A stretch of DNA of 59,054 nucleotides from a bacterium (GTDB lineage Bacteria > Cyanobacteriota > Vampirovibrionia > Gastranaerophilales > JBAXKC01): NCBI GenBank assembly GCA_037137535.1, contig JBAXKC010000016.1, positions 1-59,054 on the forward strand, given 5' to 3'. The notes under the pieces were generated by a model, which was not told the origin of the DNA, ran no database searches, and was given only the letters and a program-made list of their open reading frames with translations. This document shows positions 9,078 to 58,015 of this stretch, in pieces. Every line of letters begins with the position of its first letter. Within the stretch, counting starts at the first letter, position 1. A program made the position numbers and the translations under genes.

Positions 9078-9764
9078 TTAATGATTAGTGTTATTTATGG
9101 AAGACTTCTTTATTTCTTCTTGATCATCTGCCTCAGATTGCAATAAGAAATATATTATAGGTAAAATATCACATTTTTTATTGCCTTTTAGCGTTCCATT
9201 TATATATTTATCCCCTATGAAATTTGAATCTATTTCAAATTCCACGCTTTTTTCTCCAATAGTGCCAGTTATTAATGTTGGTTGAAATAGTTTTTTCTCT
9301 AATTGAAGATTCACATCTTTGTCTCCAATATATCCACTTAGTGTTTTGTTACCAAACCAACTTTTTTCCATTGCTAAATAAGTATCATTATTCTGATAAT
9401 CGCCTTTTGCAACGGTTGAACCCCAATTTCTACTTAATTCAATAGATATATTTTTATCTCCGATATTGCCGACAATTTCAGGATTTTGAAACCAACCTTT
9501 TTTTGTACTTAAGTTTATATTTTTATCTCCATAATTTCCTGTGTATTTTGTGGAGTTAAATAAATTCTTTTCTATAGTTAAAGCAAATTTATCATCATTA
9601 ACGTGTCCGCTGATAGTTCTATCTCCAAATAATGGCGTTGAGCTTTGTAGTTCAACGCTATCGCAATAATTACCAAAAGATACAGGTTTATTTAATTGTG
9701 TAGTTTGTCCGCATTTAATATTTGACTTTATAATTGGAATATTAGATAAAATATTTTTTATCAT
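9078..9764 (-). CDS. Hypothetical beta-repeat protein with N-terminal VSFG leader
   Basis: 228-aa ORF with about seven 22-23-aa repeats (GxIGDKxxxL...F/W). Confidence 0.75.
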   Translation of the reverse strand: MIKNILSNIPIIKSNIKCGQTTQLNKPVSFGNYCDSVELQSSTPLFGDRTISGHVNDDKFALTIEKNLFNSTKYTGNYGDKNINLSTKKGWFQNPEIVGNIGDKNISIELSRNWGSTVAKGDYQNNDTYLAMEKSWFGNKTLSGYIGDKDVNLQLEKKLFQPTLITGTIGEKSVEFEIDSNFIGDKYINGTLKGNKKCDILPIIYFLLQSEADDQEEIKKSSINNTNH

Positions 9765-9792
9765 TTAAAACATCCTATTTTTGCTCTCAAAT

Positions 9793-9821
9793 ATATAAAA
9801 CCATTAAATAATAAAAATTTC
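9793..9821 (-). promoter_or_regulatory. Conserved bipartite upstream motif, site 1
   Basis: GAAATT-N13-GGTTTT-ATAT, 28 nt before the ATG at 9764. Confidence 0.55.
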
Positions 9822-9942
9822 TATAAATATAAGTAATGTAAAAAACTTTACTTAAAACTCTCTTTTCTTTATAAACACTTTAAATCTGTCTCATGTCATG
9901 ATAAAAATTAATATAAGGTTTTATTTCAATTGGAGATGAACA

Positions 9943-10230
9943 TTGATTACCGTAAAAGAAGCAGAAAATGTCGCTAAACTTGCCAGATTGGCTTTAGCAG
10001 ATGATGAAAAACAAAAACAGGCAGATCAAATGGGTAAACTTCTTGATTATTTTAATTTATTGAATGAAGTTAATACAGAAAATGTTGAACCTATGGCTCA
10101 GGCTATACCTAAAATTAACGTTATGAGAGATGACGTTATGGTTCAAAATTTTACAAGAGAAGAGCTTTTAGCTAACGCTCCTTTAGAGGAAGACAGCTAT
10201 TTTAAAGTTCCTAAAATCTCAGAAGAATAA
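9943..10230 (+). CDS. gatC: Asp-tRNA(Asn)/Glu-tRNA(Gln) amidotransferase subunit C
   Basis: VAKLARL, MRDD and LANAP...YFKVPKI. Confidence 0.95.
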   Translation: MITVKEAENVAKLARLALADDEKQKQADQMGKLLDYFNLLNEVNTENVEPMAQAIPKINVMRDDVMVQNFTREELLANAPLEEDSYFKVPKISEE

Positions 10231-10397
10231 ATTTTAAAAATATTATTAAATTTACGCAATTTTATATAATTATGAACATTACATGAATTAAAACAATTTA
10301 TTGGGTTGCTCGGGCAATTCTTGTATAATTGTTTTAAGTAAAATTTAGCTTTGTTATTTAAAGCTAATGCTCAGGAATAAGGAATAGAAGGTTATTT

Positions 10398-12029
10398 ATG
10401 ACTACCAAGTATATTTTCGTCACAGGTGGTGTGGTTAGTTCTTTAGGAAAAGGAATAGTTGCTGCATCTTTAGGTAAACTTTTAAGGGCAAGAGGTTATT
10501 CCGTAACAATTCAAAAATTTGATCCTTATATAAACGTTGACCCTGGAACTATGAGTCCATTTCAGCATGGTGAAGTTTTCGTAACCGAAGATGGAGCTGA
10601 AACTGATTTAGATTTAGGACATTATGAACGTTTCATTAATACTGATTTAAGCAAAGTTAACAATGTAACCGCAGGAAGCATCTATCTAAATGTAATCACT
10701 AAAGAAAGAAAAGGCGATTACCTTGGTGCGACTGTGCAGACAATTCCTCATATAACAAATGAAATTAAGAGTAAAATCAAAGAAGTCGGTAAAACTAAAC
10801 CTGATTTCGTTATTACTGAAGTTGGCGGAACTGTCGGGGATATTGAAAGTTTACCTTTCTTAGAAGCTATCAGACAGTTTAAAACCGAATCAGGATTTGG
10901 AAACGTTGTTTCTATCCATGTTACTTTAGTTCCTTATCTTGACGTTGCAGGAGAGCTTAAAACTAAGCCTTCTCAGCATAGTGTAAATACATTAAGAAGT
11001 ATCGGTATTCAACCTGATATTCTTGTTTGCAGAAGCTCAAAAGCTATTCCTAAGAGCGATAGAAAAAAATTAGCATTGTTTACAAGTGTTCCTGTTGAAG
11101 CTGTAATCGAATGTAAAGATTTAAAATCTATTTATGAAGTGCCAATTGCTCTTGAAGAACAAGGCTTACCTAGAGAAGTATTAAAAAGACTTTGCATAGA
11201 AGATAAAACACCAAATCTTGATACATGGAAAAATTTATTAGACAGAATTAAAACAGCAGATAAAACTGTTAGAATTGGTCTTGCGGGTAAATATACAAAA
11301 CTTTCAGATGCTTATATCTCAGTAGTAGAATCTTTAAAGCATGCAGGTGCTGCTCTTGGTGCAAATATCGAGCTTAAATGGATTTGCTCCGAAGAATGTG
11401 TTGATCTTAATAAAGCATATGCAGCTTTAGAAGATGTTGACGGCGTTGTTGTACCTGGTGGATTTGGTTTCAGAGGTATCGAAGGTAAAATCAACGTAAT
11501 CAAGGTTGCCAGAGAAAAGGATATACCATTCTTAGGTCTTTGTTTAGGTATGCAATGTGCTGTTATTGAGTATGCTCGAAATGTGGCAGGACTTGATGAA
11601 GCTAACAGTACCGAATTTTTCCCTGAAAGTCCTAACCCTGTTGTTGATTTAATGCCTGATCAGGAAGGCTTTACAGATTACGGTGGTACTATGCGACTTG
11701 GTTCGTATGAGTGTCATACTCTAAACGGGTCAAAAACGCAGGAAGCCTATGGTTCTGCTGTGATTACCGAAAGACACAGACATAGATATGAAGTAAATAA
11801 CAGTTTCAGAGAAACTCTTTCCAATGCAGGATTAGTGTTCTCAGGTTTATCTCCAGACGGAAGACTTGTTGAAATTGTTGAACTTCCAGAGAAAAAATGG
11901 TTCGTTGCAAGTCAATTCCATCCAGAATTTAAGTCAAGACCGGAAAATCCGCATCCGTTATTTGTTGGACTTGTTAAAGCAGCAGTAGGAGATAAAGTAA
12001 ATGAACCGGAATTACAGCAAGTTACTTGA
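10398..12029 (+). CDS. pyrG: CTP synthase
   Basis: [28 protein letters not shown] and QFHPEF. Confidence 0.98.
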
Positions 12030-56287: not shown

Positions 56288-56337
56288 TACTTTTCTCTCC
56301 AAGAAGAATAACAAATAATATTTTTTATACTCATGTT

Positions 56338-56366
56338 TATTAAGTTTAAAAGTCTACACTAATTGC
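56338..56366 (-). promoter_or_regulatory. Conserved bipartite upstream motif, site 7
   Basis: GCAATT-N13-AAACTT-AATA(AACATG); shares TTAATAAACATG with site 5 at identical spacing. Confidence 0.55.
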
Positions 56367-56586
56367 CCTTAATAATAATAATTAACGCATGCTTTTACAA
56401 TTGTTAATATAAAAATAAAGTTATATTGTATTTCAAATCCTAAAATATGGCTATTTGAAAGAACTGTTAGAGCCTTAAAAGACTATGGATAGAGATTATA
56501 TAAAGGATTAATTACTGAAACACCTTGCATTCAAGCATTCTTCATCATACTATTAACAAATTATTATTAAAAGAAAGATTATTGTG

Positions 56587-56615
56587 CCAATTTTTTGTCT
56601 TAGGATTATTTAATA
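56587..56615 (+). promoter_or_regulatory. Conserved bipartite upstream motif, site 8 (degenerate)
   Basis: CCAATT-N13-TTATTT-AATA, 65 nt before the ATG at 56681. Confidence 0.4.
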
Positions 56616-56680
56616 TAAGTTAAAAACTAAGACACAAATTTATAAATCCAGTAATAATCTATGTTAAAAAGGAAATAAAG

Positions 56681-58015
56681 ATGATTAATAAACATTTATA
56701 TTCAAACGGAAATGTTTCTTTCAAAGGATATTTTGCCTGTCCTTTAAAAGCAGTATATGTTCAACCTTCACCTTTAATGAGGGATGAAGAGGAGTTATCA
56801 CTATTACAAGGTTATCAAAAAGATTTAAACAAAGAGGGCGTAGATCTATATTTTCAGCTAGAAAAGATGGCTCTCCAAAATAATCCAAAATCATACTTAA
56901 CAACTGATATAAATCAAGCTTTTAAGGATAGATCAGGCCCTTCCGAAAGGTACAGTCCATGGGGGCAGGATAATAAATTTATAGTTAATACTCCAAATGG
57001 ACTCGTTGTACTAGAAAACGGAATAATAAGAAAAAGAGAGAAAAATGCAGTAAAAGAGTTAGCTGAAAGCCTAGGGGGAGAGTACAAGAAAATGATCTCC
57101 CGATTAGATGGTGGAAATGTTTTTCTTGGGAAAACTGATGAAAAAAAGAAATTTGCTCTTGTGGGAGATGAAGCAATAGAAGATACTGCCCTTAAAATGG
57201 CATTAGCAAAGAAAGACTTCCACATCGAATTTATTAAAGCAGCAGGTAGTGGAAAAGTTCTTATTAAATTCGGGGACGAAGAATATTGCGAATCCTTGAA
57301 AAATTTAAAAAATAATAATTTAGAAAAAATGGACATACCAAATTTAGAAATAAAAGAAATTTTAAGCTCTGCATGTGAGGATTATAAAACAAATAAAAGT
57401 ACTTATTTTAAGGAAGCAAAAACTCAAATTTTCAAAGATTTAAATATTCAGGATGTAAGGTTTATAGAACAACCTGCATTTCATATTGATATGATAATGA
57501 GACCTTTAAAATATCCCTATGTACTAGTTAACGACTATAATTTATCTGTAAAATGCCTTGAAGAGGAAAAAAGTAAAACAATAAGCGTAACTGCTCAGAA
57601 TGATATTGATAAATTAATAAGTGAAACTACTTCCTTTGAAATGCAGCAAAGAAAAATGTATCCTGGAAGAGAAAATGTTGCAGAAAACTTAGAAAAACTA
57701 GGATTTAACGTAATAAAAGTGCCGGCAGTATTTGGAATATCAAACAACTTTATGAATGCGGTTGTTCATGAAAATAATGAAAATAAATTAGCCTATTTTA
57801 CCAATAAAAGCTCTTATGACGGTAATTTACATGAATTTGACTTGAATAAAATGTATGAAAATTACTTATCAAACATCGACACTCCTAACAAATTTAATTT
57901 CTATTTTGAAGGTGGTGCTGATGAGAAGGAAAGCAAAACAAACCAAATTACTGATCTTATATCAAGTGAATCAGGCGCATTACATTGCATAAGCAATGAA
58001 GTACCAATAGATTAA
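56681..58015 (+). CDS. Pentein-superfamily (arginine/agmatine deiminase-like) protein with VSFKG leader
   Basis: PWGQD, LDGGN, FHIDM and C-terminal GALHCIS in the order expected for guanidino-group-modifying enzymes. Confidence 0.72.
   Translation: MINKHLYSNGNVSFKGYFACPLKAVYVQPSPLMRDEEELSLLQGYQKDLNKEGVDLYFQLEKMALQNNPKSYLTTDINQAFKDRSGPSERYSPWGQDNKFIVNTPNGLVVLENGIIRKREKNAVKELAESLGGEYKKMISRLDGGNVFLGKTDEKKKFALVGDEAIEDTALKMALAKKDFHIEFIKAAGSGKVLIKFGDEEYCESLKNLKNNNLEKMDIPNLEIKEILSSACEDYKTNKSTYFKEAKTQIFKDLNIQDVRFIEQPAFHIDMIMRPLKYPYVLVNDYNLSVKCLEEEKSKTISVTAQNDIDKLISETTSFEMQQRKMYPGRENVAENLEKLGFNVIKVPAVFGISNNFMNAVVHENNENKLAYFTNKSSYDGNLHEFDLNKMYENYLSNIDTPNKFNFYFEGGADEKESKTNQITDLISSESGALHCISNEVPID

Follow-up and report, generated by a model that had tools for sequence, protein, structure and literature searches.

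The DNA window analysed here is the whole of contig JBAXKC010000016.1 (59,054 nucleotides; C16), one of the 81 contigs of a 2.95-Mb genome of 31% G+C (assembly GCA_037137535.1; hereafter G000), which is 100% complete and comes from an uncultured, non-photosynthetic cyanobacterial relative of the Gastranaerophilales (Melainabacteria). Several genes of this window encode proteins that share a leader, by which we mean a polar N-terminal stretch ending in a short motif of the form [VIL]-[SAG]-F-x-[GA]. A preliminary description of the window had listed eleven such motifs as a candidate export signal independent of Sec, and all eleven are found at the expected residues in the translated open reading frames. 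We describe this leader across the genome, a promoter shared by part of the leader genes, and a second flagellar-type export apparatus that may read the leader.

Five consecutive leader genes form a cluster at 21807-30933 on the forward strand. The first encodes a 1179-residue Peptidase_M15 protein (21807-25346; leader 21807..21890, residues 1-28, VSFAA at 24-28), and it is followed by genes for a 539-residue protein with a weak, sub-cut-off Pfam match to Peptidase_M23 (25394-27013; leader 25394..25486, residues 1-31, VGFG at 27-30), a 319-residue protein (27038-27997; leader 27038..27133, residues 1-32, IAFG at 28-31), a 239-residue protein (28030-28749; leader 28030..28209, residues 1-60, ISFSA at 56-60) and a 713-residue protein (28792-30933; leader 28792..28968, residues 1-59, ISFKG at 55-59). 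On the same strand lie a 599-residue protein (43781-45580; leader 43781..43816, residues 1-12, LAFTA at 8-12) and a 444-residue protein (56681-58015; leader 56681..56728, residues 1-16, VSFKG at 12-16). The reverse strand carries a 228-residue protein (9078-9764; leader 9672..9764, residues 1-31, VSFG at 28-31) and a 584-residue protein whose leader contains two motifs (13397-15151; leader 14981..15151, residues 1-57, ISFTKA at 11-16 and INFAG at 53-57), both without a Pfam domain. A further leader gene on the forward strand (15333..15754), with the motif TSFKA, is spread over two frames: the first begins MSLNVNSPITSFKA, runs from 15333 to 15446 and stops after 37 codons, with an apparent frameshift at an A-run near 15388, and the second runs from 15392 to 15754 and contains a membrane segment. 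The split could reflect a pseudogene, a fault in the assembly or a programmed shift. The protein encoded from 43781 likewise has a membrane segment, about 50 residues after its leader.

Methods

Genes were called with a simple custom caller based on a hexamer coding score and greedy selection, in which the start was chosen by coding score, Shine-Dalgarno match and start codon. This gave 2505 genes in G000, and every count reported below depends on these calls and start codons. The leader class was defined as the 100 proteins with the motif in a polar N-terminal context (polar-context filter). Pfam scans covered part of the leader and regulon proteins, and NCBIfam was also used. The promoter was found through k-mer enrichment upstream of the genes of the leader class, with a site threshold of at least 18 bits; the 63 promoter-bearing genes outside the class form the promoter-only set, which was chosen without a signal-peptide filter.

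For the comparison between genomes, 200-400 kb from nine other genomes of the same taxonomic class were passed through the same gene-call pipeline. These samples are small and the profile is tuned to G000, and a leader reported as not found is one not found in the samples. G000 is the sole member of the family labelled f1; its order also includes f2 and f13-f20, and f3 is a family outside that order. Counting the motif with degenerate DNA patterns was tried and rejected: the best pattern had 38 matches in the genome, just 18 of them inside leaders, and 120 codon-order permutations averaged 21.8±7.0 matches (maximum 43). As such patterns were too noisy, sampled DNA and called genes were used instead.

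A motif concentrated at N-termini

In G000, [VIL][SAG]F.[GA] has a density of about 1.0 per 1000 positions in residues 0-60 and of about 0.25-0.3 past residue 100. Within residues 2-71 it occurs in 146 of 2386 proteins, against 41.7±6.2 (maximum 62) in 500 composition-preserving shuffles (z about 17), and the internal control at residues 101-170 gave no excess (42 of 1944, with 35.4±5.8 after shuffling). The motif thus exceeds chance by far, which bears out the observation made in the preliminary description. An unbiased count of gapped patterns of two or three residues placed SF, VSF, ISF, V.F.G, SF.A and LSF among the top N-terminal patterns, beside ordinary signal-peptide patterns.

By BLAST the 100 proteins of the class fall into 89 unrelated body families, which confirms that one leader is shared across unrelated proteins. 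When the polar-context filter was applied to internal pseudo-N-termini, 16 of 1760 matched, so perhaps a fifth of the 100 class members are there by chance. A profile trained on the class scored at least 12 bits in 96 of 2386 N-termini, a figure made circular by this training, and in 1 of 1650 internal segments, which is not circular. The impression that the leader avoids housekeeping proteins holds only statistically; the loose filter also catches EF-G, RtcB and flagellar rod proteins, visibly as chance matches. The motif serine is encoded 17 times by AGY and 30 times by TCN codons, and the 100 motif instances include 96 distinct 15-nucleotide versions; the use of both codon families and this diversity of the DNA indicate that selection acts on the protein.

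The five positions of the motif are V/I/L, then S/A (less often N or G), F, any residue, and G/A; the free position (-2) is Lys in 22%, Ser in 15% and Thr in 12%. The motif starts anywhere from residue 2 to residue 76, and within the first 10 residues in 15 of the 100 proteins. The stretch before it, in which Asn (2.2-fold) and Gln (1.9-fold) are enriched and Trp, Cys, Gly, Phe, Glu and Asp depleted, can be described as a disordered spacer with much Asn, Gln, Ser and Thr and few acidic residues. The extreme N-terminus has features of its own. Asp and Glu are missing from residues 2-12 in 69 of 100 class proteins against 803 of 2325 others; [ILV]N lies within residues 2-8 in 40 against 347, and [ILV]N.{1,2}N within residues 2-14 in 23 against 106, out of the same totals. 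Since five of the six flagellins of G000 begin M[SG]IVVN[TN]N and the sixth MEINTN, the extreme N-termini of the leaders resemble those of this organism's flagellins in their [ILV]N..N and their acid-poor bias. A membrane segment follows the motif within 75 residues in 10 of the 100 proteins. A companion D-x-[VFA] element, reported earlier to come after some motifs, was found in 9 of 100 proteins, against 8.3±2.3 in shuffled sequences, and is thus a chance feature.

The leaders were compared with known types of signal. A hydrophobic segment (10-residue window with a Kyte-Doolittle mean of at least 2.2 in the first 40 residues) is present in 1 of 100 class proteins, partly by construction, in 3 of 63 members of the promoter-only set, which is unfiltered, and in 495 of 2325 others, in agreement with the original view that leader proteins lack such a segment. 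The h-region of a Sec signal peptide (signal peptidase I or II) is absent from the first 35-40 residues in all but one of the 100 proteins. As for Tat signals, the h-region is again missing and Arg is not enriched in the leaders (0.93-fold; the RR motif itself was not counted). Type IV prepilins, whose short basic leader ends in Gly ahead of Phe and some 20 hydrophobic residues, are not matched either, Phe preceding Gly in the leader described here and the residues after the motif being Asn, Lys, Asp or Glu. A double-glycine leader of the C39/ABC type was rejected, position -2 being mostly Lys, Ser or Thr instead of Gly, Ala or Ser, and the cargo reaching 1508 residues. The leaders do have the N-terminal properties of type III effectors, being disordered, polar, acid-poor and without a Sec signal. 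The gate recognition motif of early flagellar subunits has the form F-x-x-x-hydrophobic; in the leaders the residue at F+4 is Lys in 19%, Asn in 14% and Ile in 10%, which is not this form.

Proteins that carry the leader

Most of the leader and regulon proteins that were scanned match no Pfam or NCBIfam family. Among those that do, wall hydrolases are represented by Peptidase_M15, CHAP and Peptidase_M23 (one weak match in the window, and one above the cut-off beside the second flhB gene described below), and glucan-type enzymes by a GT5/GT1 glycogen-synthase-like (GlgA-like) protein, a GH77 MalQ-like protein, two proteins with an alpha-amylase domain, one of them with a C-terminal domain typical of branching enzymes, and two NTP_transferase proteins of the GlgC type by Pfam, with a third by BLAST. 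Also present are two AAA + Peptidase_M41 (FtsH-like) proteins, two further AAA proteins, two DHH proteins, an adenosine deaminase, a pentapeptide-repeat protein, a Peptidase_M16, a Lipase_3, two proteins with weak sub-cut-off PPPDE (C97) matches and several EF-hand proteins. These domains look like those of effectors, as the preliminary description had it, and to judge from the domains some of the proteins (Peptidase_M15, M23, CHAP) would have to leave the cytoplasm.

For GlgA, GlgC, FtsH, DHH and adenosine deaminase, G000 also has a leaderless or nearly leaderless copy, to which the copies with a leader are only 24-38% identical; the leader therefore sits on divergent, accessory paralogs. Among the adenosine deaminases, those of G000 and of one f16 genome (ISFTS) have the leader, those of five genomes of f13, f15, f17 and f19 do not, and a sixth copy, from f19, is also leaderless. 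Its presence and absence within one family mark the leader as a modular add-on. In all eight relatives of the 56681 protein that were read, from six genomes of the families f14, f17, f18 and f19, x[SNA]F[KSQR]G stands immediately ahead of a conserved Y.A.PLK, while the part upstream varies in length and sequence. The motif is thus retained in relatives at 28-40% identity while its flanks change.

Five tandem paralogs of 111-115 residues that belong to the leader class, encoded at C25:29127-30881, all begin MQLTT..ANYPTYQK....QVAFSGNIG.

A promoter shared by part of the leader genes

The k-mer search revealed a promoter-like motif of two blocks, (A/C/G)GCAATTT-N13/14-TGTTTTTATATA. Site scores are bimodal and 83 genes carry a site of at least 18 bits, the first block lying 47-187 nucleotides, mostly about 60-100, before the start codon. 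In the whole of G000, on both strands, there are 104 sites, about four fifths of them in the roughly 8% of the sequence that is sense-oriented upstream DNA. The promoter precedes 20 of 100 class genes and 63 of 2405 others (odds ratio 9.3, p 1.7e-11). The promoter-only proteins have mostly polar N-termini and 10 of the 63 begin with MG; [SA][IV]F or [IVL][SAN]F occurs in residues 2-70 of 24 of these 63 against 524 of 2325 others. In its present form the promoter may be private to the G000 lineage, since the samples of other genomes gave 0-2 sites per 200-400 kb (two in the f2 sample), compared with 3.5 per 100 kb in G000.

In the window the promoter precedes 13397-15151, 43781-45580, 31404-32297 and 33750-35573 and, by eye, also 15333. 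The site of 13397-15151 is GGCAATTT ... TTTTTTATTTATATA at about 15186..15227 (reverse strand, limits approximate; 25.2 bits), and that of 43781-45580 scores 20.0 bits. The site in front of 15333 (AGCAATTC-N-TGTTTTATTATAAATA, 15278..15315, forward strand) was recognised by eye and is unscored, the gene call having begun at 15488. The gene at 31404..32297 (reverse strand; protein MAAIGNDDFFKSF..., no Pfam domain) belongs to the regulon without having the strict motif, and its promoter, at about 32318..32358 on the same strand (limits approximate), scores 30.1 bits. The last of these genes (33750..35573, reverse strand; 27.9 bits, site at about 35629-35669) encodes a GGDEF + HD-GYP protein. Such proteins act in the turnover of cyclic di-GMP, and a link between the regulon and this messenger is possible.

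The idea that this is the late-flagellar promoter was rejected, as none of the six flagellin genes shows it within 300 nucleotides, by eye. These genes are C11:19609, four on C44, and C6:76203, with upstream regions of at least 170 nucleotides; C11:19609 has a textbook sigma-28-like site, TAAAGTTT-N11-ACCGATAG (by eye). C13_42290 bears the promoter motif, yet is not a flagellin by PF00669.

Two small proteins, C15:44882-45466 and C15:46512-47096, are identical over their first 95 residues. Together with a relative, C62:8061-8420, they begin MGL..SQ.R.L.LT.RK.D.E and are encoded behind top-scoring regulon promoters; none has a family above the cut-off, and a coiled-coil match of the C62 protein is weak.

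A second flagellar-type export apparatus

G000 contains two flagellar-type export sets. The canonical set A comprises FlgB, FlgC, FliE, FliF, FliG, FliH and FliI on C36 and FliP, FliR, FlhB and FlhA on C3. The second, set B, which we call type III secretion system B (T3SS-B), occupies three loci. C13:60-11210 encodes FliI, FlhA, FliH, a 313-residue protein, FliF, FliE, an SLT lytic transglycosylase, FlgC, FlgB and two short FlgF/G-like rod proteins; C7:19789-25501 encodes a FliMN_C protein, FliO, FliP, FliQ, a small 'pil_N' protein, FliR and a TPR protein; and at C21:47278-49069 flhB is followed by the gene for a 228-residue sigma factor. This sigma gene shares an operon with flhB-B, and the best NCBIfam match of its product is FliA/WhiG, far under the cut-off. 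FlhA-B is 37% identical to FlhA-A and falls below the cut-offs of both FlhA and SctV, and FlhB-B passes the NCBIfam cut-off for flagellar FlhB.

The 313-residue protein, which belongs to no family, takes the place of fliG in the C13 locus and could be a very divergent FliG; a single-sequence AlphaFold2 model was all-helical with a mean pLDDT of 39.6, which makes it unusable. No FliG or second P-ring was detected in T3SS-B: the sole FliG_C match and the sole FlgI of G000 lie outside its loci, and BLAST found no paralog of FliG in the genome. Of six FlgE/F/G-type proteins, the only one of hook size (a 458-residue open frame) is on C1, again outside these loci. On these findings T3SS-B does not appear to be a bacterial flagellum, whose set would include a FliG torque ring, P and L rings, a hook and flagellin.

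The genome also encodes four stand-alone FlhA C-domain proteins without a membrane part (C2:107687-109057, C27:25204-26991, C34:182-1675 and C60:3193-4599), one of them fused to the N-domain of the 313-residue protein; in the order, one ortholog per genome is typical. Single adjacencies, and not a count of clustering, connect leader or regulon genes with T3SS-B and its accessories. The fliOPQR-B/TPR operon is followed after 122 nucleotides by the gene of a GlgC-like leader protein, flhB-B and the sigma gene have as their divergent neighbour an M23 gene whose leader is a variant, and one stand-alone FlhA C-domain gene starts two bases behind a TPR gene that bears the regulon promoter, in an operon with it. 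When a complex was predicted between residues 205-357 of FlhB-B and residues 1-50 of the leader of the 25394 protein, the score was 0.02 (mark 0.34), which bears neither way.

Distribution among related genomes

Leader N-termini of at least 12 bits were found in 2 of 169 genes of the f2 sample (G030) and 2 of 312 of the f3 sample (G001), which has a third at 11.5 bits. The samples of f4 (0/333), f5 (0/167), f6 (0/165), f7 (0/168), f8 (0/160), f9 (1/158) and f10 (0/166) together gave 1 of 1317, and internal controls were zero in every sample. Together with the cargo families above, the leader has been seen in f1, f2, f3, f14 and f16-f19, with the largest repertoire in G000. The proposed lineage specificity is upheld in that the leader occurs in the order and in f3 and is all but missing from the samples taken from seven other families. 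Four samples share one G+C content of 33%, those of f5, f8 and f9 (zero or one match) and that of f2; the pattern is therefore not a matter of composition.

FHIPEP, the Pfam family of FlhA, is present in all 34 genomes sampled from the order, and 31 of them have a separate match to the C-domain only. Genomes of f13-f20 as a rule combine both types of FlhA, A and B, with a single stand-alone C-domain protein. Six f2 genomes have the B-type FlhA and the stand-alone protein only, and no A-type FlhA occurs in 32 f2 genomes either. Flagellin and FliG_C are absent from all five f2 genomes searched for them (G005, G012, G018, G024 and G030; 99% complete), and the same five keep a B-type FlhA adjoining an ortholog of the 313-residue protein. 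T3SS-B has thus been kept without a flagellum in f2, and the 'incomplete flagellar gene set' of this family seems to be a machine that has been maintained and not a leftover.

Full-length alignments of the stand-alone FlhA C-domain protein were obtained in 32 of 32 f2 genomes and in one f3 genome; in the other f3 genome the match lies at a contig end and covers part of the query. Seven other families have matches as well (81 of 85 genomes), nearly all of those listed being C-domain stretches within a full-length FlhA; the exceptions are a 529-residue open frame in f10 and, in three incomplete f7/f8 genomes, fragmentary matches. The N-domain of the 313-residue protein is found in 32 of 32 f2 and 2 of 2 f3 genomes; weak matches to its C-part only occur in f6 (6/17), f10 (6/14) and f12 (1/1), and f4, f5, f7, f8, f9 and f11 gave none. 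These two accessories share the distribution of the leader, and a bare second FlhA is more widespread. In f6, f10 and f12 the second full-length FlhA is flanked by the weak match to the 313-residue protein.

Discussion

On these findings we propose that the leader may be a lineage-specific, non-Sec N-terminal export tag read by T3SS-B, a proposal that we favour at something short of an even chance. The tag would consist of an extreme N-terminus, often M-[LI]-x-[IL]-N..N and flagellin-like, a disordered, acid-poor spacer of 0-70 residues in which Asn, Gln, Ser and Thr abound, and the sole conserved element, [VIL]-[SA(N,G)]-F-x-[GA]. It would mark about 100, and up to about 160, effector-like and partly co-regulated proteins, which the cytoplasmic face of the motor-less, flagellum-derived T3SS-B would recognise and export. 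A stand-alone FlhA C-domain protein or the 313-residue N-domain may act as the reader, and the FliA-like sigma factor beside flhB-B may drive the regulon promoter. A wider evolutionary version, in which a duplicated flagellar export set became a motor-less and filament-less secretion or injection machine in the Gastranaerophilales and a sister family, with more than 100 Phe-motif substrates, partly promoter-driven, and FlhA C-domain adaptors, appears rather unlikely as a whole, if still credible.

The lead towards flagellar or type III secretion in the preliminary description gains circumstantial backing from a second, motor-less apparatus whose accessories are co-distributed with the leader; export itself, T3SS-B as the exporter, the identity of the reader and the role of the sigma factor are all inferred. 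Several observations weigh against the export tag. Classical type III secretion (T3S) signals lie in the first 20-25 residues, unlike a motif that starts between residues 2 and 76, and in 10 of 100 proteins a membrane segment follows the motif. The promoter stands before just 20 of the 100 class genes and before none of the five-gene cluster at 21807-30933, and the flhB-B/sigma, C13 and C7 operons of T3SS-B are without it. T3SS-B has no assigned outer-membrane conduit, hook or needle. Many of the cargo domains use ATP (AAA+, nucleotidyl transferases) and would fit the producer's own cytoplasm as well as a target cell. A second full-length FlhA occurs in f5, f6 and f10, whose 200-kb samples gave no leaders, so the apparatus alone does not predict the leader, and one match of at least 14 bits came from the f9 sample (1/158), a genome without any FlhA. 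The match in distribution rests on essentially one clade, the order and f3, and thus on one or two evolutionary events, and at 12 bits the leader is infrequent in f2 (2/169) and f3 (2/312) compared with G000 (96/2386).

Other explanations must be set beside this one. The motif might be a short linear motif that docks proteins on an intracellular hub such as a scaffold, the pole or a granule, with nothing exported. Such docking would suit a cargo that is largely of the cytoplasmic, ATP-using type (GlgA-like, three GlgC-like, AAA+, FtsH-like, DHH, adenosine deaminase) and includes several proteins of glycogen metabolism, among them the GH77 MalQ-like one; it would also suit a motif whose position is very variable and can abut a folded domain, as in the 56681 family, and the membrane segments that in 10 of 100 proteins would keep the leader in the cytoplasm. 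We nevertheless hold it to be unlikely: a cytoplasmic location is difficult to reconcile with the M15, M23 and CHAP wall hydrolases, which have no signal peptide, the enzymes are divergent extra paralogs and not the housekeeping copies, and no candidate hub was found. Alternatively, the motif could be the cleavage site of a dedicated protease that removes a polar propeptide after [GA], with or without coupled export. Three features agree with cleavage, namely conservation limited to the C-terminal end of the leader, upstream of which length and sequence vary freely, a small residue (Gly or Ala) that closes the motif, and the position of the motif right before the conserved domain in the 56681 family; no candidate protease was found, however, the two C39-like ABC genes adjoin putative membrane-fusion and outer-membrane partners (by eye) in a type I-like arrangement, and the mostly Lys, Ser or Thr at -2 is unlike the Gly, Ala or Ser of double-glycine leaders, so that we consider cleavage distinctly improbable.

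Export could also take another route, through the true flagellar set A or an unrecognised transporter. Set A is complete in G000, the leader N-termini resemble those of flagellins, and there are three secretins and a Tad-like locus with one leader gene adjoining. Yet f2 has no A-type FlhA (and no flagellin in the five genomes tested) and its sample still contains leaders (2/169); the flagellin genes have no regulon promoter within 300 nucleotides and one of them has a sigma-28-like site (by eye), and secretin pathways need a Sec or Tat step, which is absent from leader proteins. We regard such a route as quite unlikely. That the leader is an artefact of composition or gene calling, without function, would be conceivable in an AT-rich genome with Asn/Lys-rich N-termini and start codons from a simple custom caller, but is extremely improbable in view of the excess over composition-preserving shuffles (z about 17) without any internal excess, the use of both serine codon families, the retention of the motif in relatives at 28-40% identity, and the four samples at 33% G+C, of which three were reported without the motif and the fourth with one match.

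Several known systems resemble parts of the export tag and its putative reader. Bryant et al. (2022, eLife, PMC8983047) describe early flagellar (rod and hook) subunits with an N-terminal hydrophobic signal and a gate recognition motif that docks on the C-domain of FlhB. Like the signal described there, the leader is unchaperoned, with a disordered N-terminus, a short motif around an invariant Phe and a separate feature at the extreme N-terminus, and a flagellar-type export gate is present in G000. Unlike in an F-x-x-x-hydrophobic motif, the hydrophobic residue of the leader stands two positions before the Phe and F+4 is not hydrophobic; spacing is free (15 of 100 motifs start in the first 10 residues), and the cargo is some 100 non-axial proteins.

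According to Gehre et al. (2016, eLife, PMC4829429), GlgA, GlgB, GlgX, GlgP and MalQ of Chlamydia trachomatis carry functional T3S signals and GlgC does not. G000 similarly has GlgA-like, amylase/branching-like and MalQ-like enzymes with non-Sec N-terminal extensions and a T3S-type apparatus. The parallel is striking, though confined to the cargo. The Chlamydia signals have no consensus and the housekeeping enzymes themselves are secreted, whereas here a motif defined by sequence sits on extra paralogs, GlgC-like ones included; by comparison with that system, there is also no evidence of a host cell for G000.

Injectisomes are flagellum-derived secretion machines, and non-flagellar proteins are also exported through flagella, for example in Campylobacter. 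T3SS-B resembles an injectisome in being a flagellar-type export core without motor parts that is kept in non-flagellated relatives; it differs in keeping a flagellar rod, FliE and FlhB-type parts, and no needle, translocon or dedicated secretin was identified in it.

Soo et al. (2014, Genome Biol Evol, PMC4040986) read flagellar genes in nonmotile members as a loss of functional flagella. That subset of genes is probably set B as it occurs in non-flagellated f2. In contrast to the reading given there, set B is a separate, paralogous set, coexists with a full flagellar set in G000 and is conserved in 32 of 32 f2 genomes.

No description of the leader, the promoter or the second export set was found in full-text literature, a search that did not cover subscription journals. 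What is new here is the two-block promoter, a T3SS-B without detectable FliG or a second P-ring, and two accessories co-distributed with the leader. To our knowledge, bacterial sorting signals nearly all fall into three kinds: hydrophobic peptides at the N-terminus, C-terminal domains, and T3S signals that follow no consensus. If the export tag is real, 3-4% of a proteome would carry a short, non-hydrophobic tag defined by sequence, a novel type of address label from which cargo could be predicted. The 'incomplete flagellar gene sets' of non-motile gut Melainabacteria would gain a function, nature would provide a second case in which a flagellum became a secretion device, and the view of common gut and freshwater Melainabacteria as simple fermenters would be called into question. 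On the wider evolutionary version, the machine would be an exaptation independent of the classical injectisome, and a cargo made up of wall hydrolases, a lipase, proteases, PPPDE and EF-hand proteins and glucan enzymes would suggest that these bacteria live as predators, epibionts or manipulators of hosts, in a way not yet described; a role in predation or symbiosis, suggested by the domain types, is speculation. The motif and the promoter together make the hypothesis directly testable.

Other secretion-related genes

Of the three secretins of G000, one lies within the Tad-like locus, and each of the two C39-like ABC transporters stands beside apparent type I secretion partners (by eye). Type IV secretion was rejected as a route, VirB4 (PF03135) having no match in G000. 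A cargo of extracellular contractile injection or type VI secretion systems was likewise rejected, the sole sheath gene lying on C35 among phage-like tail, head, portal and terminase genes (by eye, with no family search). C35 (1-19554) resembles a myovirus-like prophage in the order and sizes of its genes, which look like those for tail fibre, baseplate, tape measure, tube, sheath, head, terminase and portal. In the window itself, the reverse strand at 1053-3014 encodes a Maf/MptE-like protein, a member of a family of flagellin glycosyltransferases.

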